A stretch of DNA of 40,600 nt from Candidatus Nomurabacteria bacterium RIFCSPLOWO2_01_FULL_41_12. GTDB lineage: Bacteria > Patescibacteriota > Minisyncoccia > Phycocordibacterales > UBA9973. This document shows positions 2,956 through 11,656 of this stretch, one piece after another. The position numbers and the translations under genes were made by a program. The stretch is from the NCBI GenBank assembly GCA_001787035.1, contig MFUY01000002.1:7355-47954 (forward strand), read 5' to 3'. The stretch's first letter is position 1; each line of letters begins with the position of its first letter. A model generated the notes under the pieces. It saw nothing but the letters and a program-made list of their open reading frames with translations, was not told where the DNA came from and made no database searches.

Positions 2956-3765
2956 ATGGAAATCCCACAAGAATATCAAAAGAATTTATATCGTGCAGTA
3001 CTTGCCTTTCTAATCGTCTTGTCGCTTCTGTTCGCAGTAAAGTTTTTCTCTGAGCTCCGCTCTTACGGAATGATGGGCAGCTCAAATGCCAATGTTATCA
3101 CTCTCTCCGGTCATGGAGAAGTGCAGGCAGTACCGGATATTGCCAATGTTTATTTCACTATTTCTAAAGATGCGAAAACAGTAAAAGAAGCACAGGAAGC
3201 TGTGGCGAAAATAGAAAAAGCCGCGCTTGATTTTTTGAAAGGAAAAGGGGTAGCTGATAAAGACATAAAAACCGAAAATGCCTCTTTCTATCCGAAGTAT
3301 GAATATAAATACGATACGAAAATGATGATGCCTTGCAACGAATATGGATGTCCTCCACGAGGAGGCAATAGTGTAATTGTCGGCTATACTGCGTCTGAGA
3401 GCGTTACGGTAAAGGTTCGCAATACTGATGATGCCGGAATTATTATGCAAGGCTTGGGTACAGTTGGCGTTTCTAATTTAAATGGCCCTAATTTTGCCAT
3501 AGATGATGAAGATGCATTAAAAGCTGAGGCTAGAAAAAAAGCGATTGATGATGCGAGAGTTAAAGCAAAAGTTTTAGCAAAAGATCTTGGAGTTAAATTA
3601 GGCAGGATTGCAAATTTCAGCGAGGGAGGCGGATATTTTCCTGTAATGTATGGCAAGGTTGCCGGGATGGGGGGTGATGCTGAAATTTCATCCGCTCCGG
3701 CCGAGATTCCCAAAGGAGAAAACACCATCAGCTCGGACGTGACAATAACTTACGAGATAAAGTAA
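2956..3765 (+). CDS. SIMPL (DUF541) domain secreted/periplasmic protein
   Basis: 269 aa. N-terminal membrane anchor, then GHGEVQAVPDIANVYFTI and an AKVLAKDLGVKLGRI SIMPL-type core. Confidence 0.75.
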   Translation: MEIPQEYQKNLYRAVLAFLIVLSLLFAVKFFSELRSYGMMGSSNANVITLSGHGEVQAVPDIANVYFTISKDAKTVKEAQEAVAKIEKAALDFLKGKGVADKDIKTENASFYPKYEYKYDTKMMMPCNEYGCPPRGGNSVIVGYTASESVTVKVRNTDDAGIIMQGLGTVGVSNLNGPNFAIDDEDALKAEARKKAIDDARVKAKVLAKDLGVKLGRIANFSEGGGYFPVMYGKVAGMGGDAEISSAPAEIPKGENTISSDVTITYEIK

Positions 3766-3794
3766 ACCCGCACACTAAATTTTAGTGTGCGGGT
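3766..3794 (+). terminator. hairpin directly abutting the stop codon (terminator-like)
   Basis: ACCCGCACACTAAA (3766-3779) pairs with TTTAGTGTGCGGGT (3781-3794), followed by AAATTTGATATTTT. The arms resemble the hairpin at 29050/29108. Confidence 0.55.
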
Positions 3795-3833
3795 AAATTT
3801 GATATTTTATAGAAAAAGAGTACTATTAAAACC

Positions 3834-4361
3834 ATGAAACAACTTGATCCAAAGGCAGTCTGGTTATTTTTTATTAGTTCTGTTTTACGTTTGTTTTGGT
3901 TACTCATACTTTTTAGTATTGTAGGTTCGGTAACCTTGATTGATTACCTTAGCAAAAACTTAAATAAGACTGGGGAGATTTCATTTACCTTTCTGAATTG
4001 GCTATGGATTATTATTCCTATTTTTCTTATTATTTGCTTTATTTTGGCAAAGCTTACCTATCATTATTATCGATATGAGATGTCAGAACTCGTGTTTAAA
4101 AAAGAGCACGGCATCATTTGGAAAAAATATGTTTCCATACCTTACGACAGGATTCAAAATGTCGATATTTATCGCGGAGTATTGGCGCGGCTTCTTGGTC
4201 TCTCTGATCTCCAAATTCAAACAGCAGGAGGCATAACTGCCGGTAGCTACGGAGCGTTTTCTGAAGGAAGACTAATAGGAGTATCAAAAGAAGAGGCTGA
4301 AAAATTAAGAGACGAGCTAATCCAAAAAGCCCGCAGTTCTCGTACTGGCCAAGGACTCTAA
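3834..4361 (+). CDS. membrane-flanked bacterial PH domain protein (bPH_2/DUF304, YdbS-like)
   Basis: 175 aa. Two N-terminal TM segments, then PYDRIQNVDIYRGVLARLLGLSDLQIQTAG. Confidence 0.7.
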   Translation: MKQLDPKAVWLFFISSVLRLFWLLILFSIVGSVTLIDYLSKNLNKTGEISFTFLNWLWIIIPIFLIICFILAKLTYHYYRYEMSELVFKKEHGIIWKKYVSIPYDRIQNVDIYRGVLARLLGLSDLQIQTAGGITAGSYGAFSEGRLIGVSKEEAEKLRDELIQKARSSRTGQGL

Positions 4362-4401
4362 TTTTTTAATTTGACTATTTGAGAGAAAAAGAGTAAAGTT
4401 G

Positions 4402-4426
4402 AAAGAGCCCTGAAGGGGGCTTTTTT
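4402..4426 (+). terminator. rho-independent terminator
   Basis: AAAGAGCCC - TGAAGG - GGGCTTTTT stem-loop followed by a T run, between the bPH gene and secE. Confidence 0.65.
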
Positions 4427-4431
4427 AAGAA

Positions 4432-4614
4432 ATGTCAAAGATTACCGAATATTTCAAAGATACAAAAATGGAGCTGAAACATGTAATTTGGCCCGGGAGG
4501 AGCCAGACTCTTTACTATACTTTAATTGTCATAGTTTTGTCAGTTTTAGTCGCGTATTATCTGGGTATTTTTGATTTTATTTTTTCCAAAGGTTTAGAAA
4601 AGTTATTACCATAA
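4432..4614 (+). CDS. secE: preprotein translocase subunit SecE
   Basis: 60 aa with a single TM. ELKHVIWPGRSQTLYYTLIVIVLSVLVAYYLGIFDFIF. Located immediately upstream of nusG. Confidence 0.8.
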   Translation: MSKITEYFKDTKMELKHVIWPGRSQTLYYTLIVIVLSVLVAYYLGIFDFIFSKGLEKLLP

Positions 4615-4629
4615 GCCTCAAGCCTATAC

Positions 4630-4702
4630 ACTTGTCCCGTACTAAATTTTTGATTACGAGGCATAACGATAAACATTAATAATTAAAATTTTAGTACTGG
4701 GA
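4630..4702 (+). repeat. Family A leader element, copy A2 (ends in the nusG ATG)
   Basis: ACTTGTCCCGTACTAAATTTTTGATTACG...AAAATTTTAGTACTGGGA. TCCC 4635-4638 pairs with GGGA 4699-4702, which includes the A of the ATG. Confidence 0.7.
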
Positions 4703-5244
4703 TGAAACAAGAAACAGAGGGGGCAAGAAATTGGTACGCAATACACACTTATGCCGGATATGAAAATGTCGTCTTGCGTAATTTGCGCCAGCGCATTGAC
4801 TCCCTAGGTATGAACGATAAAATTTTCAACGTTATTGTTCCGATTGAAAAAAAGATAAAAATAAAAGGAGGCAAGAGAGTGGAGGTGGAAGAAAAAATTT
4901 ATCCGGGTTATGTTTTGGTTGATATGATTGTGACGGATGATTCTTGGTATGTGGTGAGGAATACTCCGCGGGTCACCGGTTTCGTCGGCGCGGGAGTAAA
5001 CCCGGTGCCTCTTAAAAAAGAAGAAGTGGAGTATCTTTTCAAGAAGATGGATGCCGGCACAACTAAGCACAATATTGACATGGTTATCGGCGAGAGCATT
5101 CTGATTACCGATGGTCCGTTTAAAGAACTGGAAGGGAAAATTAATTCCATTGACCAAGAGCGTGGCAAAGTTAAAGTGCTTGTTTCAATGTTCGGTCGCG
5201 AGACCCCGGTCGAACTAGATTTCTTGCAAGTCAAGAAAATTTAA
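4702..5244 (+). CDS. nusG: transcription termination/antitermination factor NusG
   Basis: 180 aa. WYAIHTYAGYENVV, YPGYVLVDM and a KOW-type C-terminus ITDGPFKELEGKI. Confidence 0.9.
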   Translation: MKQETEGARNWYAIHTYAGYENVVLRNLRQRIDSLGMNDKIFNVIVPIEKKIKIKGGKRVEVEEKIYPGYVLVDMIVTDDSWYVVRNTPRVTGFVGAGVNPVPLKKEEVEYLFKKMDAGTTKHNIDMVIGESILITDGPFKELEGKINSIDQERGKVKVLVSMFGRETPVELDFLQVKKI

Positions 5245-5258
5245 GATAATGTATCAGA

Positions 5259-5302
5259 GTCGCGCTTAAAGGACGGTTGCGCGACATGATTTCGCAAAAT
5301 CA
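5259..5302 (+). repeat. Family B leader hairpin pair, copy B1 (abuts the rplK ATG)
   Basis: GTCGCGC (5259-5265) - 13 nt loop - GCGCGAC (5279-5285), then ATGATTTCGCAAAATCA. Near-identical copy at 31249-31294. Confidence 0.7.
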
Positions 5303-5728
5303 ATGGCTAAAAAAATAACCAAAAAAATAAAACTTCAAATTCAAGCTGCAAAGGCCACTCCGGCGCCGCCCTTGGGGCCTGCGCTCGGCCAAGCCGGCAT
5401 AAATATCGGAGATTTTGTCACCAAGTTCAACGCTGCCACAGCCAAAATGGCCGGGGATAAAGTCGGTGTTTCCATTACTGTTTATGAAGACAGGAGCTAT
5501 GATTTTATTGTGAAAACACCTCCAGTAACCGGGCTTATCTTAAAAGCCGCTGGGGTGGAGAAAGGTTCTGGTAAAAATGTTGCGACAAAAGCGGGTAAAA
5601 TCACTCGCGCACAAGCTTTAGAAATCGCAAATAAAAAAAGAGCGGATTTGAATGCCAAAGATGACGAAGGCGCAATACGCATTATCGCCGGCTCTGCTCG
5701 ATCTATGGGTATTGAAGTAGTGGATTAA
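5303..5728 (+). CDS. rplK: 50S ribosomal protein L11
   Basis: 141 aa. [26 protein letters not shown]. Follows nusG as usual. No rplA follows. Confidence 0.95.
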
Positions 5729-5736
5729 CGAAGCCT

Positions 5737-6462
5737 ATGTTAAGATACTCATATATGTCAAACATTAAACAATATTTTACGCAGAAAAATGTTCTCTTTA
5801 TTGTTATTTTCGCAGTTTTGGGGTTTATCGCTCTGCAAATTCCAGTGGCCCAATTGGAAGGGTCTAAAGTGAAGTTTATGGTCTATGACGCTTTCGCTCC
5901 TGTGGCCGGCGCTTTTATCGGTAGCTTGCCTGGCGTAGTGGCGGTCTTTTTAATGCAATTTGTAAATTTCTTGGTGCACGGAGCAGTTGTGGAAGATGCC
6001 GGAACAATTATTCGTTTTTTGCCGATGCTTTTCGCGGCATTATACTTCGCTCGGAAAGGAAAATCTAATCTAGTCGTTCCAGTACTTGCGATTATCGCTT
6101 TTATTGCTCATCCTATCGGCCAAACGGTTTGGTATTTTGCACTTTTCTGGACCATTCCAATTATTGCCTATTTTTTCCGTGACAGGTTTCTTTTGGCGCG
6201 GGCGCTTGGCGCCACCTTTACCGCCCACGCGGTCGGCGGCGCTTTATGGATCTGGGTTTTCAACCTGCCGGCGCCGGTTTGGGTCTCGCTTATACCGGTT
6301 GTGGCTCTAGAGCGCGGATTTTTTGCTCTTGGAATTGTTATTTCTTTTGTTCTTGTCAACAATCTTTTAGCTTTTCTCGAAAAGAAATATATCTTAAATC
6401 TCGGTTTTACTATTAACCAGGGATATCTCTTGGGCGCATTACGCCATGAATCGAAAGTCTAA
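5737..6462 (+). CDS. multi-pass membrane protein; possible vitamin/folate-type transporter component (context only)
   Basis: 241-aa ORF (alternative ATG at 5755) with about 6 hydrophobic segments. Its stop overlaps the next gene. Any function is inferred only from the adjacent folate genes. Confidence 0.5.
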   Translation: MLRYSYMSNIKQYFTQKNVLFIVIFAVLGFIALQIPVAQLEGSKVKFMVYDAFAPVAGAFIGSLPGVVAVFLMQFVNFLVHGAVVEDAGTIIRFLPMLFAALYFARKGKSNLVVPVLAIIAFIAHPIGQTVWYFALFWTIPIIAYFFRDRFLLARALGATFTAHAVGGALWIWVFNLPAPVWVSLIPVVALERGFFALGIVISFVLVNNLLAFLEKKYILNLGFTINQGYLLGALRHESKV

Positions 6463-6985
6463 GCCGCATAAAGTTATTTACACCGCTTATGTTGCAACTA
6501 GTATTGATGGACGCATAGCAGAGAGTCATCAGTCCGGCATAGACTGGACAAGCAAGGAAGACTGGAATTTTTTTCAGAAATCTCTTAATAAAATGGATGC
6601 CGTCATTGTGGGGCATAATACTTATAAAGTTTCCAAAGATCGCCTCAAACGGAGAAACACCATAGTTTTGACTTCAAAAATCAATAAGTTGAAAACACAA
6701 GACAAAATTGTTTTTTTTAATCCAAAGAACTCCAGCCTAGAAAAATTTCTTAGTAGTAAAGGATATAAAAATATAGCAGTGCTCGGTGGCGGTAAAGTGT
6801 ATGATTTTTGCCTTTCCAATAAAATGCTGGATGAGCTTTTTGTCACGATTGAACCGTATGTTTTCACAAATGGCGTGCCGATGTTCTCCGGGATTAGATT
6901 CAGAAAATATAAATTTTCCTTAGTTACAGTTAAAAGACTTAATAAAACAGGAACCCTTCTCTTAAAATATAAAAATGAAAATTAA
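6446..6985 (+). CDS. RibD C-terminal domain / dihydrofolate-reductase-like reductase family protein
   Basis: 179 aa. VATSIDGRIA, DAVIVGHNTY, VLGGGKVY, DELFVTIEPYVFTNG. Confidence 0.7.
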   Translation: MNRKSKPHKVIYTAYVATSIDGRIAESHQSGIDWTSKEDWNFFQKSLNKMDAVIVGHNTYKVSKDRLKRRNTIVLTSKINKLKTQDKIVFFNPKNSSLEKFLSSKGYKNIAVLGGGKVYDFCLSNKMLDELFVTIEPYVFTNGVPMFSGIRFRKYKFSLVTVKRLNKTGTLLLKYKNEN

Positions 6986-7736
6986 AACTATAAAAACCAG
7001 AATATTTCGCGAAAACGAAAACCTAATGGAGTTTATTTTAAAGTATCTCAAAAAAATTCCCAAAAAAAATCTTGAGCAATCTATCCTGGTTATAACCTCC
7101 AAGATAGTGGCTCTCTCCGAAGGGAGAACTAAAGAAATTGATAAATCAATTTCTCACGACAAAATGCGGGAAAAGATTATTAAAGCTGAAAGCGAATATA
7201 TGCTGCGGACTAAATACACCTGGCTGACCATCAAAGACGGGATGGTCATGGCTTCAGCCGGCATTGATGAATCCAATGCGGACAACAAGATAGTTTTATT
7301 ACCAAAAGATTCTTTCCAGGCCGCCCATTTAATTCGCAAGAAGTTAGTTAAAGAATATAAAGTAAAAAACTTAGGTATTCTAATTACGGACAGCAGGCTA
7401 CTGCCTCTGCGCGCAGGCATCGTCGGAGCCGCTGTCGGTTATGCTGGGTTTAAAGGTGTGCGAGATTATCGCGGAACTCCGGATATCTTCAGGAGAATTT
7501 TAAAATTATCCCGGACTGATGTGGCTGACGGCTTGGCTACCGCAGCCGTACTTTGCATGGGAGAAGGCAAAGAGCGGCAACCACTCGCCTTGATTACTAA
7601 CGCTCCGGTTGAATTCGTGGAAAAAGTCAACAAAAAAGAGCTCTACATCGACCCGCGCGAAGATTTGTATCAGCCTCTTTTTGCCAGGATAAAAAAAATA
7701 AAAAATATAAAATCAAAGAATTATTACAGGTTTTAA
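6975..7736 (+). CDS. CofE/FbiB-like gamma-glutamyl ligase (putative folate-metabolism gamma-glutamate ligase)
   Basis: 253 aa. ITSKIVALSEGR, ASAGIDESNA, ILITDSRLLPLRAGIVGAAVGYAGF. Confidence 0.7.
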   Translation: MKIKTIKTRIFRENENLMEFILKYLKKIPKKNLEQSILVITSKIVALSEGRTKEIDKSISHDKMREKIIKAESEYMLRTKYTWLTIKDGMVMASAGIDESNADNKIVLLPKDSFQAAHLIRKKLVKEYKVKNLGILITDSRLLPLRAGIVGAAVGYAGFKGVRDYRGTPDIFRRILKLSRTDVADGLATAAVLCMGEGKERQPLALITNAPVEFVEKVNKKELYIDPREDLYQPLFARIKKIKNIKSKNYYRF

Positions 7737-7765
7737 AAATTTTTGAGGTGTGATATATTAATCCT

Positions 7766-8095
7766 ATGGTTGATTTAAAAGAATTACAAAAGGAAGTGAT
7801 GAGGAATAAGCTGGAGAAGGGGTTTAACACAAAAAATCTTGCGCTGGATTTTTGTCGCGCACACGAAGAACTTTCTGAAGCTTTTTCTAAACACAACAGG
7901 AATCAGCCCGGAGTGGCGGAAGAATTTGCTGATGTAATGATATTTATCCTTGGTATGTGTGAGACAATGGACTTTGACCTGGAAAAAGAATTAAACAGAA
8001 AAATTGAAATTAATAAAAAAAGAAAATACAGAAAAGAAAAATCCCCAGAAGGTGAAGATGTATTTATTCGCATAAAAACTCCCGAGGACCCTTAG
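7766..8095 (+). CDS. MazG-like all-alpha nucleoside triphosphate pyrophosphohydrolase
   Basis: 109 aa. AHEELSEAF ... AEEFADVMIFILGMCE metal-binding E-x-x-E/E-x-x-D pattern. Confidence 0.7.
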   Translation: MVDLKELQKEVMRNKLEKGFNTKNLALDFCRAHEELSEAFSKHNRNQPGVAEEFADVMIFILGMCETMDFDLEKELNRKIEINKKRKYRKEKSPEGEDVFIRIKTPEDP

Positions 8096-8583
8096 ATTTT
8101 TTCGTAGATTGAAAAGGTATAGTTAAAAGGATTCCTTTCGTCTTTTTGGCGCTCTTCGTGGGAGATTTCGTTCCAAACTACCGGTATAATTTCCGGGAAA
8201 AAGGCGTCAGCATCTTTTTCTTCCGCTTCTGTGTGGGTTATATAAAGTCTGTCGGCAATAGACATAGTTTGCTTATATAATTCTCCTCCTCCGATTATAA
8301 AAATTTCCTCGTCAGTATTTTTAAATAATTCTAATGCCTCATTTATAGAATGGGTAATTTCCACTCCGTCTTTCTTATAATTTAAATCTCTAGTAATTAT
8401 TATATTTCTCCTGTTGGGCAATGGCCTCCCCAGAGACTCAAAAGTCTTGCGTCCCATGATGACCGCATGTCCGGATGTAGTTTCCCTGAAATGCTTCATG
8501 TCTTCAGGCATATGCCACAGGAGGGTATTGTTTTTGCCTAGTTCGTTATTTTTCCCGATAGCTGCGATAAGTGAAATGGTCAT
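8092..8583 (-). CDS. folA: dihydrofolate reductase
   Basis: 163 aa. ISLIAAIGKNNELGKNNTLLWHMPEDMKHFRETTSGHAVIMGRKTFESLGRPLPNRRNIIITR and IIGGGELY. The ATG overlaps the TGA of the upstream ThyA-like gene (ATGA). Confidence 0.9.
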   Translation of the reverse strand: MTISLIAAIGKNNELGKNNTLLWHMPEDMKHFRETTSGHAVIMGRKTFESLGRPLPNRRNIIITRDLNYKKDGVEITHSINEALELFKNTDEEIFIIGGGELYKQTMSIADRLYITHTEAEEKDADAFFPEIIPVVWNEISHEERQKDERNPFNYTFSIYEKI

Positions 8584-9413
8584 TTTATGATATTTAAGCC
8601 TTCAATCGGCTCTCCGGGCTTGTAATAAGGAGCGAATGCTTCATAAATCTCTTTTACCAGATTCTCATCCTTTTTTTTCGCCCGGTCAAAAATATCTGGG
8701 GGCATTACCGGGAAAATGTTTGGATGCGTGTTCACTCTTTTAATTAATTCTTTTGCTCCTTCATAATGCGTATCGTAAATATGCGCATTGGAAATAGTAT
8801 GGGTATAAACTCCAGGTTTCACTCCCAGTTTTTGCGCAACTATATACATGAGGAGGGTAAAGCCAAAAGTATCAAAAGGGCATCCTAGCATCATGTCATT
8901 TGACCTTATAATATTGTGCAAATGAAGCCTCCTACCGATGATATTTATGGTAAAGGCAAAAGGGCAAGGCACGTTCTTTTTCTCCGTTCCGCCAAACCCG
9001 TCATCGCCCGGGTCCCAGGTGACTATCACTCCCTGGCGAGAAGTCGGGTCTTTTGTAAGTAATTCTATCAGCTTGCCTAGCTGGTCTCTTTTGAAATGAT
9101 GTTTCCAGCGATATCCGTAGGCTGCGGTAATCGTACCGTCCGGCTCAATAAATTCATCCCACATTTTTGTATATTTTCGCAAAAACTCAGTATCTTTCTC
9201 GCCAGTTATAAACCAAACTTGCTCGGCAATGGGCGACTTTATAGGATTTTTCCTTAGCGTCAAAATAGGAAAACCATCTTTTTCTATATCAATTTGGAAA
9301 GTAATCCCGGGCAAGGCTTTTGTTTTATGGCCCGTTCTCTCGTTAAGCTCTTCTATTCCTTCAGACATTATTTTCTTAATAATGTTTTGATAGATTGTAT
9401 CAAAAGTGGTCAT
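8580..9413 (-). CDS. thymidylate synthase (ThyA) family enzyme with Asp at the Asn177 specificity position
   Basis: 277 aa counted from the ATG at 9413. The track ORF runs on to 9638, but the ThyA alignment begins at MTTFDTIYQ. Motifs: NERTGHKT, MWDEF, catalytic Cys in NVPCPFAF (codon 8964-8966), IRSNDMMLGCPFD (Asp codon 8871-8873), NAHIY. Confidence 0.85.
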   Translation of the reverse strand: MTTFDTIYQNIIKKIMSEGIEELNERTGHKTKALPGITFQIDIEKDGFPILTLRKNPIKSPIAEQVWFITGEKDTEFLRKYTKMWDEFIEPDGTITAAYGYRWKHHFKRDQLGKLIELLTKDPTSRQGVIVTWDPGDDGFGGTEKKNVPCPFAFTINIIGRRLHLHNIIRSNDMMLGCPFDTFGFTLLMYIVAQKLGVKPGVYTHTISNAHIYDTHYEGAKELIKRVNTHPNIFPVMPPDIFDRAKKKDENLVKEIYEAFAPYYKPGEPIEGLNIIK

Positions 9414-9438
9414 ATAGTAGAGTATACAATATAAACTT

Positions 9439-9927
9439 ATGGAAACAAGAAATATCAAATATCCGTATTTGCCGGAAAGCCGAACTATTTTATATGTTCC
9501 CGAGGAAAATAAATATATGTTTTCCGCCAAAGAAGTTGCACTCAGAGAATCTACTGATAAAAAGATTTCAACCGGAGTTGTAATTGTAAATGAGCAGGGC
9601 GAGATTTTGGTTAAGGCTGCAAACCAGTCCGCGCTCAAAAATCAATATCTTCTAGCTACCCATAAAAACTGGTGTATCAGAAAACTTTTTAAAATTCCTT
9701 CGGGGCAAAAATATTGGCTATGTCCCGGATGCGCTTCGCACAGGAATCATGGGGAATATAGGGCGATAAAGATGCTGGAAAAAAAATTTCCGAATAAAGT
9801 TGGCTCAAGTTTAGATTTATATTTGTGGGGGCATTGGTGGTGCTGCAAGCCTTGTTGGGATAAAATGATAGAGGTTGGAATCAGGAGTGTATATCTTCTG
9901 CAGGGGGCAGATAAACTTTTTAAATAA
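9439..9927 (+). CDS. cytidine/deoxycytidylate deaminase-fold zinc enzyme (dCMP deaminase-like)
   Basis: 162 aa. NHGEYRAI (H-x-E zinc/catalytic motif) and CKPCWDKM (PCxxC). Divergent from the ThyA-like gene across a 25-bp spacer. Confidence 0.65.
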   Translation: METRNIKYPYLPESRTILYVPEENKYMFSAKEVALRESTDKKISTGVVIVNEQGEILVKAANQSALKNQYLLATHKNWCIRKLFKIPSGQKYWLCPGCASHRNHGEYRAIKMLEKKFPNKVGSSLDLYLWGHWWCCKPCWDKMIEVGIRSVYLLQGADKLFK

Positions 9928-9928
9928 T

Positions 9929-10360
9929 ATGAAAAAGAAACTTTACATCGGTTGCGCTTTGACAAATATCCCAGTTGATAAAAGGAAAATTCTTCTAGAG
10001 ATGATTGTTAAAATAAAAAAGGAATTAAGTAATCATTTTGAAATTCTAGAGTTTTTAGGGGTTGATGATTTGGGGACCGATCGTCCTTTTTCTCCACGTG
10101 AAATTTATAATTTTGATATAAAAGAGTGTTTAATGAAAACGGATTATTTTTTAGCAATTTGTGATTATCCTGCACTTGGTCTTGGTTATGAGATAGCTAC
10201 AGCTGTGGAGAAAAGAGGAATTCCGGTTTTGGCTCTGGCTCATAAGGATTCTAAGGTTTCTAGATGTATTGTTGGTATTGATCATCCCAATTTTCATTTC
10301 ATGTATTATGATTCGGTGGAAGATATTATTGAAAAAACCTTTAAAACATTGACAAATTAA
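9929..10360 (+). CDS. nucleoside 2-deoxyribosyltransferase/DNPH1-like fold protein
   Basis: 143 aa from the ATG at 9929 (the track start 9875 overlaps the upstream gene). LYIGCAL... and PALGLGYEIATAVEKRGIPVLAL resemble the NDT-family core. Weak assignment. Confidence 0.4.
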   Translation: MKKKLYIGCALTNIPVDKRKILLEMIVKIKKELSNHFEILEFLGVDDLGTDRPFSPREIYNFDIKECLMKTDYFLAICDYPALGLGYEIATAVEKRGIPVLALAHKDSKVSRCIVGIDHPNFHFMYYDSVEDIIEKTFKTLTN

Positions 10361-10420: not shown

Positions 10421-11656
10421 ATGTACGCACATCATCAATCAGGACCAAAGAAATTTGGCCGTTCATCTTCTTTTAGAGCTAGACCCCGTTTAGGAGGCGG
10501 ACGGTTTTCTCGTTCAAAGAGCAATAGAAGGTCGCGTGGCGAGCACATAGATTTTTCGCGCTTTGTTAAAAAGAATGTTTATGTGGAAGAAAAGCCCTAT
10601 TTGTCCAAACACACCTTCGCAGATTTCTCCTTTAATCCTCAATTGCATAAAAACATAACTCGTGCCGGGTTCATCCATCCCCGGCCTATTCAAGACCAGG
10701 CGATACCGACGGTACTAAAAGGCTCGGACGTCTTTGGCATGGCCAATACTGGTACAGGCAAGACTGCGGCATTTTTACTTCCTTTAATTGAAAAAATCGC
10801 TAAGACCAGAGGCAAGAACATGAGAGAAAAGGTCTTGATAATGGCGCCAACTAGAGAGCTTGCGCTACAGATAGAGGAGGACTTTAAAAACCTCGCTTTT
10901 GGGTTCGGGATGTTTTCGGTCGCTTGTGTGGGAGGCCTACCTATCACCAAACAAATTAGAGAAATACAATTAGGTGTTTCGTTTATTATCGGCACACCAG
11001 GAAGATTGCGAGATTTGATAAATAGAAAGGTTCTTGATCTTTCTATTTGCCACTCTGTCGTGCTTGACGAAGCAGATAGAATGCTGGATATGGGTTTCCG
11101 GGACGACATGGTTTTTATCATCGGCAAAACTGCAAAAGAAAAGCAGACGCTTTTCTTTTCGGCGACGCTTTCCCCAGAAATTAGAAAATTAACGCAACTG
11201 TATCTAAAAGACCCAGTTTTTATTTCCGTAATTTCTGGTGAGACGTTAAAAAATATTGATCAAGATGTCGTTCGTACTAGAAGCAAAGAAGAAAAATTAA
11301 ACAAACTGCACGAAGTTTTGAAAAAAGATGGTTCCGATAAAGTGCTTATTTTTCGCGAGATGAAGCACAGCGTGGATTCTCTGGCGAAAGAATTGTCCCA
11401 TTTTGGTTTTAAAGTAGGCGCTATTCACGGCGACAAAAGAAGCCGTGAACGTATCCGCATACTGGATTCATTTAAAAAAGACAAGATTAATATTTTAATT
11501 GCCACCGACGTGGCCGCGCGCGGGCTTGATATTCCAGACGTAACGCACGTCATCAACTACGACGTGCCTCAAACCTACGATACCTACGTGCACCGTATCG
11601 GCCGCACCGGCCGTTCTGGCAAAAAAGGTACAGCCCTGACTTTCGTACCAGTATAG
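10421..11656 (+). CDS. DEAD-box ATP-dependent RNA helicase with RG/RS-rich N-terminal extension
   Basis: 411 aa. Q motif PRPIQ, Walker A ANTGTGKTAAF, PTRELA, VLDEADRMLDMGF, SAT, ARGLDI, HRIGRTGR. Confidence 0.9.
   Translation: MYAHHQSGPKKFGRSSSFRARPRLGGGRFSRSKSNRRSRGEHIDFSRFVKKNVYVEEKPYLSKHTFADFSFNPQLHKNITRAGFIHPRPIQDQAIPTVLKGSDVFGMANTGTGKTAAFLLPLIEKIAKTRGKNMREKVLIMAPTRELALQIEEDFKNLAFGFGMFSVACVGGLPITKQIREIQLGVSFIIGTPGRLRDLINRKVLDLSICHSVVLDEADRMLDMGFRDDMVFIIGKTAKEKQTLFFSATLSPEIRKLTQLYLKDPVFISVISGETLKNIDQDVVRTRSKEEKLNKLHEVLKKDGSDKVLIFREMKHSVDSLAKELSHFGFKVGAIHGDKRSRERIRILDSFKKDKINILIATDVAARGLDIPDVTHVINYDVPQTYDTYVHRIGRTGRSGKKGTALTFVPV

Follow-up and report, generated by a model that had tools for sequence, protein, structure and literature searches.

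An Asp-type thymidylate synthase homologue and a divergent zinc deaminase as a candidate route to thymidylate through 5-methyl-dCMP in Patescibacteria

The subject of this work is a cluster of eight small genes built around a homologue of thymidylate synthase (TS) in Candidatus Nomurabacteria bacterium RIFCSPLOWO2_01_FULL_41_12. The cluster occupies positions 5737-10360 of the window, by which we mean the whole stretch of 40,600 nucleotides that was analyzed, located on contig C2 (MFUY01000002.1) of this genome. The genome itself comprises 666 kb in 31 contigs and is 91% complete. On one side the cluster is flanked by nusG-rplK (4702-5728) and on the other by a DEAD-box helicase gene (10421-11656), and each of the eight genes is single-copy in the genome. 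The original prediction, made from the letters of the window, had listed eight open reading frames (ORFs) here; all of them were found where it had placed them, and its family labels hold. A scan of the window for promoters and terminators gave sites no more frequent than in shuffled sequence. Three genes form the center of the cluster: the ThyA homologue (8580-9413, minus strand; PF00303, 185 bits), folA for dihydrofolate reductase (DHFR; 8092-8583, minus strand; DHFR_1, 208 bits) and a zinc deaminase of the fold found in deaminases of deoxycytidine monophosphate (dCMP) (9439-9927, plus strand; PF00383, 38 bits).

The active site of the TS homologue differs from the canonical one in a specific way. 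The catalytic Cys146 is kept (VPCP motif; Cys150 in the protein's own numbering), Asn177 is replaced by Asp (GCPFD, codon 8871-8873), and His147 is replaced by Pro (PCP). In comparison with the solved ThyA structures, to which identity is about 35-40%, further changes are Trp83 to Phe, Arg127 to Gln, and Asp205 to Asn. The residues Arg21, Glu58, Trp80, Tyr94, Arg126, Cys146, Arg166, Ser167, Asp169, His207, and Tyr209 are retained; two of them, Ser167 and Arg126, are associated with deoxyribose preference and are seen here in the RSND and SRQ motifs. All 60 best matches among solved structures are thymidylate synthases, and T4 gp42 is not among these 60. The protein scores 120.6 bits against TIGR03284 (cut-off 108) and stays under the cut-offs of the remaining NCBIfam TS equivalogs. 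In its active site it departs from a canonical ThyA, Asn177 and His147 both being replaced, and the sequence sits outside the Asn-type clade.

The substitution is fixed over a large group of sequences. Asp177 was present in 120 of 120 close homologues, in 82 of 82 genome loci of our first set, and in 12 of 12 loci belonging to other classes within the phylum. About 130 of the 150 best cluster representatives at 50% identity are of this Asp type, mostly with Pro147. In the phylogenetic tree the split between Asp-type and Asn/His-type sequences has a support of 0.993. Its sole exception is the protein of locus L108, with His147 and Asp177, which falls within the canonical clade and looks like an independent Asn to Asp change. 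Its ORF (G039:C5:1-9500, 3671-4507, minus strand) reads VAPCH ... GVPFD, and its neighbors encode a RibD_C-like reductase and a membrane protein that shares 60% identity with that of the window. The closest phage matches of the window protein belong to the Xp12 group (37-41% identity; 38% to the Xp12 enzyme), and the Xp12 enzyme carries the same Asp177/Pro147 pair. Some unusual relatives were also detected. In one cluster representative of 432 aa (P0166) an HNH endonuclease domain (PF13392, 35 bits) is joined to the N-terminus of an Asp-type TS, and the protein may be a fusion with a homing endonuclease that came from a phage. Other Paceibacteria encode long TS-like proteins (467-491 aa; L122 4471-5901, L123 2939-4387, L124 4937-6412, L127 576-1979). 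Position 177 is Asn in these proteins, but 147 is Ile, Leu, or Met; those of L122-L124 are without the usual GxPF motif, and in L123 and L124 an HAE-type deaminase of about 290 aa stands beside the long protein.

What the substitution may mean is suggested by enzymes studied elsewhere. Positions 177 and 147 are those that distinguish best between TS homologues from contigs with modified cytosine and TS homologues from unmodified contigs, and mutation of Asn177 to Asp changes the substrate of TS from dUMP (deoxyuridine monophosphate) to dCMP (PMC8670742). Asp at 177 is common to the cytosine-using enzymes T4 CH, MilA, and BcmA, and Ser167 and Arg126' mark a preference for deoxyribose, the ribose-preference residues of MilA and BcmA being Ala176 and Lys133 (PMC5175136). 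On expression, the TS of Xp12 and five of seven Asp-type TS from metaviromes yielded 5-methyl-dC (bioRxiv 10.1101/2024.12.05.627091). By analogy with these enzymes the TS homologue is predicted to be a dCMP C5-methyltransferase. The retention of Ser167 and Arg126 indicates a deoxyribo substrate and excludes a MilA-like enzyme acting on cytidine monophosphate (CMP).

The position of folA bears on the type of reaction. The TS stop codon overlaps the folA start as ATGA, an arrangement of translational coupling. For comparison of neighborhoods we used the best 80 of 375 stretches encoding a TS relative, obtained by scanning GTDB species-representative genomes; all 80 come from Patescibacteria. A folA-type reductase lies immediately downstream of TS in 73 of these 80 loci. 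Coupling and position together fit a methyl transfer that produces dihydrofolate and not a hydroxymethylase. T4 gp42 resembles our protein in its TS family, in the Asp at the base-reading position, and in acting on dCMP, the substrate predicted for ours. However, this dCMP hydroxymethylase yields tetrahydrofolate (THF) and a hydroxymethylated product and requires no DHFR, whereas the TS of the window is coupled to DHFR, which argues for methyl transfer. A hydroxymethylase of the T4 type is for this reason judged unlikely.

The zinc deaminase starts back to back with the TS homologue on the opposite strand. Only 25 nucleotides (window 9414-9438, ATAGTAGAGTATACAATATAAACTT) separate the two start codons, so that both promoters must lie within neighboring coding sequence or transcription must come from further away. 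Its zinc site consists of H104-G-E106 and C136-K-P-C139, in which H104, E106, C136, and C139 are invariant; the second motif had at first been given as PCxxC, and the sequence reads CCxxC. This is the only gene of the cytidine deaminase (CDA) fold in the genome. The structural model (predicted local distance difference test, pLDDT, 90) has as its top Foldseek matches the PBCV-1 dCMP/dCTP deaminase, human DCTD, and T4 Cd (7fh4, 2w4l, 1vq2), at E of about 1e-4 and a template-modelling (TM) score of about 0.5; TadA follows closely, also at about 0.5. A phmmer search of the protein against PDB gave no match. By analogy with phage loci the deaminase is predicted to turn 5-methyl-dCMP into thymidine monophosphate (dTMP). 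Of the deaminases on modified contigs 70% stand beside a TS, versus 6% of those on unmodified contigs, and such neighboring deaminases give thymidine nucleotides from 5-methyl-dC nucleotides; mSCD-B5, the sole characterized phage deaminase, requires a triphosphate (bioRxiv 10.1101/2024.12.05.627091).

Which genes of the cluster travel together can be read from the 80 loci. The deaminase is divergently adjacent to the Asp-type TS in 77, and the remaining three stop at a contig end. A MazG-like gene is near TS in 53 loci. The CofE-like ligase (18 loci), the DNPH1-like gene (17), the RibD_C-like gene (11), and the membrane protein (one) are much more sporadic. The conserved unit therefore consists of deaminase, TS, and reductase, to which the pyrophosphatase is added in Nomurabacteria, and the other four genes are variable passengers in the stretch next to rplK. 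The proposal that all eight genes form one module has thus to be given up, the accessory genes being found in 1-18 of 80 loci. Of the expected co-occurrence with the Asp variant, the part concerning the deaminase, the reductase, and usually the MazG-like gene stands, and the part concerning the four accessory genes does not.

The pairing of deaminase and TS is also visible in a sample of the whole phylum. Among its 301 genomes, 14 have an Asp-type TS and 11 of these 14 have the deaminase family (E <= 1e-20). The family is present in 11 genomes of the sample, all 11 with Asp-type TS. ThyX was found in none of the nine deaminase-bearing genomes checked, and deaminase and Asp-type TS share a contig in eight of nine phylum-level genomes. 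In one of the three other Asp-type genomes a less closely related CDA-fold deaminase is encoded at another place. Conversely, no member of the family was found near TS in the 17 Asn-type loci examined; some Asn-type loci carry canonical HAE-type dCMP deaminases, as detected by profile search, including one in the same genus (genome G121). Hence it is the type of deaminase, rather than the presence of a deaminase, that co-varies with the type of TS. In another class, genome G413 (G413:C5:98811-99724; L142 2-786) has two tandem copies of the deaminase beside an Asp-type TS, one of them within an open frame of 357 aa.

How do these bacteria obtain thymidylate? The present genome has one ThyA-family gene and one CDA-fold deaminase gene, together with ribonucleotide reductase (RNR) and serine hydroxymethyltransferase (SHMT); ThyX and thymidine kinase were not found in it. 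Each of 50 related Asp-type genomes tested has exactly one TS-family gene and none has ThyX; thymidine kinase is present in one and thymidylate kinase (Tmk) in 48. Two members of the same genus are instructive. G121 (L090, G121:C8:50000-60000) has, at the same site between rplK and the helicase, a canonical ThyA of the Asn/His type accompanied by a MazG-like gene (72% identity), folA (58%), and an HAE-type dCMP deaminase (PF00383, 76 bits), and ThyX was not found in this genome. The MazG-like gene is thus not specific to the Asp-type route. G148 (L116, G148:C4:57685-61248) has ThyX and no ThyA. Since each of these three genomes uses one of three exclusive solutions, we argue that the Asp-type TS and its deaminase are the thymidylate source of the present organism. 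The stretch that follows rplK acts as an exchange hot spot for thymidylate genes. The second deoxypyrimidine locus of our genome is a dut-nudix-tmk operon on contig C16, next to argS (G000:C16:24364-26000; L002 1492-3128).

Gene fusions provide another view of the order of steps. In one sublineage of Patescibacteria deaminase and Tmk form a single fused protein of 377-435 aa, which is represented by 14 clusters of independent source; examples are L084 1339-2619 (minus strand, 427 aa), L135 4001-5263 (plus strand), and L136 1517-2650 (plus strand). These fusions are annotated merely as 'dTMP kinase' or 'hypothetical'. On two longer contigs the fusion gene is back to back with an Asp-type TS, beside DHFR and SHMT. 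A deaminase-Tmk fusion links two successive steps only on the condition that the deaminase yields dTMP. In about 19 of the 50 related genomes Tmk lies some 1-5 kb from TS. Linkage and fusion together suggest that the deaminase acts on a monophosphate, unlike mSCD-B5. Among the cluster representatives there are also a PRA-PH-TS(Asp) fusion (P0181) and a deaminase-TS(Asp) fusion, and in L091 (2638-3609, plus strand) a deaminase and a DNPH1/NDT-like domain form one ORF of 324 aa (PF00383, 30 bits; PF05014, 20 bits).

We consider it reasonably probable, by analogy, that the thymidylate route of the Xp12 type has been recruited as a housekeeping pathway of this lineage of the Candidate Phyla Radiation (CPR), with the order dCMP to 5-methyl-dCMP to dTMP. 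RNR would make the cytosine deoxynucleotides, and dCMP would come, possibly, from the action of the MazG-like pyrophosphatase on deoxycytidine triphosphate (dCTP). The TS homologue would move the one-carbon unit of 5,10-methylene-THF onto C5 of dCMP and reduce it, giving 5-methyl-dCMP and dihydrofolate. FolA, and perhaps the RibD_C-like reductase as well, would regenerate THF, which SHMT would reload. The zinc deaminase would then convert 5-methyl-dCMP to dTMP, and Tmk would phosphorylate the latter. The ligase, likely of the FolC2 type, and the membrane protein may keep salvaged folate in the cell, and the DNPH1-like glycosidase may clear unwanted pyrimidine deoxynucleoside monophosphates (dNMPs), for example dUMP or surplus 5-methyl-dCMP. 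The core of the original prediction, namely an Asp-variant TS on dCMP with folA recycling dihydrofolate and the deaminase forming dTMP, appears in our comparison as the best-supported reading and matches the route published for Xp12.

In Xp12-infected cells dCMP is reportedly converted to 5-methyl-dCMP and further to thymidylate, as Kuo and colleagues and Wang and Ehrlich are said to have described in 1982. In the loci of Xp12 and ZQG1 a hydrolase (HAD) or an NTP (nucleoside triphosphate) pyrophosphatase is followed by TS, dCMP deaminase, and DHFR. The bacterial cluster resembles that of Xp12 in the Asp177/Pro147 site, in its neighbors (pyrophosphatase or hydrolase, deaminase, DHFR), and in the presumed formation of thymidine nucleotides by deamination of 5-methyl-dC. 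It differs in being chromosomal, between rplK and the DEAD-box helicase gene, and in serving as the sole thymidylate source; the deaminase of the window has no sequence relationship to that of the phage outside the zinc motif, and the bacterial DNA is probably not substituted with 5-methylcytosine (5mC). Set beside the canonical combination of ThyA-FolA with ComEB or DCTD, the cluster has the same fold, the same thyA-folA coupling, a similar length, and the same net stoichiometry from dCMP to dTMP. The differences are the Asp177/Pro147 site and the order of methylation and deamination, which is reversed in the route proposed here.

Several observations weigh against this route. Gene content, active-site residues, synteny, phyletic pattern, and fusions are observed directly, but every substrate specificity and the roles of the accessory genes are drawn by analogy. 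The fold match of the deaminase is modest and barely separates dCMP deaminases from TadA, and by BLASTP its similarity to the Xp12 deaminase is limited to the zinc motif. Two of the 14 Asp-type genomes of the phylum sample, both about 85% complete, have no CDA-fold deaminase. Furthermore, three ThyX-only genomes of the class sample (G110, G048, and G011) hold orthologues of the deaminase with every conserved residue unchanged. No residue was found that sets the deaminases of Asp-type genomes apart from their counterparts in ThyX genomes, and so the idea of a deaminase family specific for 5-methyl-dCMP was dropped. The family can probably deaminate plain dCMP, and it is not bound to the presence of an Asp-type TS. 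The expectation that dut would be missing also fails, for a Dut with canonical motifs is encoded in the operon on contig C16; dUMP is consequently formed and, if nothing disposed of it, would lead nowhere. In the lineage with deaminase-Tmk fusions a gene of the DCD/dUTPase family (PF22769, 110 bits) lies between the Asp-type TS and DHFR (L135 2455-3096 and L136 3-611, both minus strand), and if its product is a dUTPase it fits a route through dUMP. By alignment with the E. coli Dcd sequence, this protein has Pro (GQLLIPIRN) at the position of the catalytic Glu of dCTP deaminase. With the Glu replaced it is probably a pyrophosphatase, that is dUTPase or dCTPase, and not a deaminase.

These facts lead to the alternative that the order of steps is canonical, the deaminase making dUMP and the Asp-type enzyme methylating it, so that the cluster would be an ordinary comEB-thyA-folA cluster with a divergent ThyA. 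It draws on the service of the deaminase family in ThyX-only genomes, where the enzyme must supply dUMP, on the presence of dut, on the clusters of dCMP deaminase with Asn-type TS known in the class, and on the DCD/dUTPase-family gene beside TS in L135 and L136. However, Asp177 and Pro147 are fixed across a large clade, and both mutagenesis and all the natural enzymes tested associate Asp at 177 with cytosine substrates. The deaminase-Tmk fusion would link steps that are not consecutive, and the constant pairing of Asp-type TS and deaminase, together with the absence of this family from the Asn-type loci examined, would have no explanation. We therefore hold the canonical order to be unlikely.

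A second alternative is use in the manner of phages: 5-methyl-dCMP would be phosphorylated to 5-methyl-dCTP, which would enter the chromosome and replace cytosine partly or wholly, and the deaminase would make dTTP from 5-methyl-dCTP in the way of mSCD-B5. The set of pyrophosphatase, Asp-type TS, deaminase, and DHFR is indeed that of fully 5mC-substituted phages, the one characterized phage deaminase is triphosphate-specific, and the top fold match of our deaminase is a dCMP/dCTP deaminase. Yet intact cytosine-5 DNA methyltransferases are encoded in 14 of the 50 Asp-type genomes (28%) versus 39 of 151 in the class sample (26%), and such enzymes would be senseless if cytosine were replaced. Tmk is retained and often adjoins or is fused to the deaminase, which points to dTMP as the product and not dTTP, and congeneric species have canonical ThyA or ThyX instead. 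For incorporation of 5-methyl-dC into the DNA of E. coli, moreover, the T4 dNMP kinase was co-expressed (bioRxiv 10.1101/2024.12.05.627091). The undepleted methyltransferases, the Tmk linkage, and the swaps between congeneric species argue together, if indirectly, against wholesale replacement of cytosine, and we regard the phage-like use as quite unlikely. The earlier suggestion that the set supplies 5-modified cytosine for DNA is disfavored on the same methyltransferase and Tmk grounds. Some incorporation of 5mC from the nucleotide pool stays compatible with this evidence. That chromosomal 5mC should arise from the pool through 5-methyl-dCTP, independently of a DNA methyltransferase and to a substantial or complete level, is in our opinion decidedly improbable; if true, these would be the first cells with a phage-style substituted genome.

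A pair of hydroxymethylase and glycosidase like MilA/MilB or BcmA/BcmB, releasing 5-hydroxymethylcytosine for a small molecule or cofactor precursor, is suggested by the presence of an Asp-type TS and a MilB-like N-glycosidase fold in one cluster; it is highly improbable, as Ser and Arg of the deoxyribo-specific enzymes stand in place of Ala176 and Lys133, DHFR coupling implies reductive methylation, the glycosidase accompanies TS in just 17 of the 80 loci, and the cell would be left without a source of thymidylate. A pathway of this type was rejected on the ribose-specificity residues of the TS homologue.

The route from dCMP through 5-methyl-dCMP, to return to the reading we prefer, is a known phage pathway, and its use for cellular housekeeping would be new. 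To our knowledge, the formation of thymidylate from dUMP, with either ThyA or ThyX, is regarded as common to all cells. In the literature we found no paper that links Patescibacteria or CPR with a dCMP-type thymidylate synthase. If the route is real, it is a third cellular way to thymidylate, starting from cytosine nucleotides, in hundreds of species of Patescibacteria, and the automatic label 'thymidylate synthase' hides it. Metabolic reconstructions of these reduced genomes would change, and the inseparability of deaminase and synthase would be explained. It raises the question how dUMP and 5-methyl-dCMP are kept out of DNA, for which the DNPH1-like and MazG-like genes are candidates. A cellular source of dCMP methylases, and possibly of 5mC-tolerant deaminases, would also be of interest for methylation sequencing.

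Among the remaining genes of the window the MazG-like one (7766-8095, plus strand) encodes a putative all-alpha NTP pyrophosphohydrolase. Its score is 25.5 bits against the Pfam MazG-like family (cut-off 27) and 15.8 bits against PRA-PH, and the metal motifs HEELSE and AEEFAD, of the EExxE/EExxD pattern, are present. In PDB the match was to the pyrophosphatase 4qgp (E 9e-5), with weak matches to DCTPP1 and MazZ. Searches of Pfam, NCBIfam, and PDB gave no substrate assignment among dCTP, dUTP, and 5-methyl-dCTP.

Three genes at the rplK side of the cluster may concern folate. The RibD_C/DHFR-like reductase (6446-6985, plus strand) scores 54 bits with RibD_C and 41 bits with DHFR_1. In distant lineages (L091, L092, L137-L139, L148) a protein of this kind replaces folA directly behind TS, for which reason the RibD_C-like gene of the window probably encodes a second reductase of the DHFR type. 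The CofE-like gamma-glutamyl ligase (6975-7736, plus strand; F420_ligase, 126 bits) has as its best NCBIfam model TIGR04132, 'putative folate metabolism gamma-glutamate ligase' (194.6 bits, under the cut-off of 350 bits); the CofE model, with 127 bits, comes behind. The CofE homologue CT611 of Chlamydia complements E. coli folC (PMC1971073). Our ligase resembles this FolC2 in belonging to the CofE family, in the lack of any sign of F420, and in its place among folate and thymidylate genes, and by this analogy it is likely a folylpolyglutamate synthase of the FolC2 type. It differs in lying below the curated TIGR04132 cut-off, and its function is a predicted one. The first gene of the cluster (5737-6462, plus strand, with its true start probably at the Met at 5755) codes for a multi-pass membrane protein with at least five hydrophobic spans. 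It has no Pfam or NCBIfam match at E up to 1 and 1644 homologues, all in Patescibacteria and mostly of 235 aa; the UniRef name of one begins 'ECF tran...', and the protein may be an S component of the ECF type. Besides the relative at L108, one with 41% identity lies next to TS and reductase genes in L146. Salvage of folate by the membrane protein and the ligase together is plausible.

The last gene (9929-10360, plus strand) begins one nucleotide after the deaminase stop. No Pfam family matches this NDT/DNPH1/MilB-like protein, and its assignment comes from the fold of an AlphaFold model (pLDDT 90.4), with TM scores of 0.71-0.77 to DNPH1 and 0.74-0.75 to MilB. DNPH1 acts on 5-hydroxymethyl-dUMP, and MilB on CMP and hydroxymethyl-CMP (hmCMP). 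The protein has in common with human DNPH1 and MilB/BcmB the fold and the catalytic Tyr, Asp, and Glu (here Tyr6, Asp72, and Glu88, all invariant). It differs from human DNPH1 in the phosphate loop, which reads GCALTN and not GSIRGG, and in being an accessory gene of its neighborhood. Judged by the model, it is possibly an N-glycosidase that sanitizes the pool of pyrimidine dNMPs. Paralogues with the canonical GSIRGG loop are present in L031 and L042.

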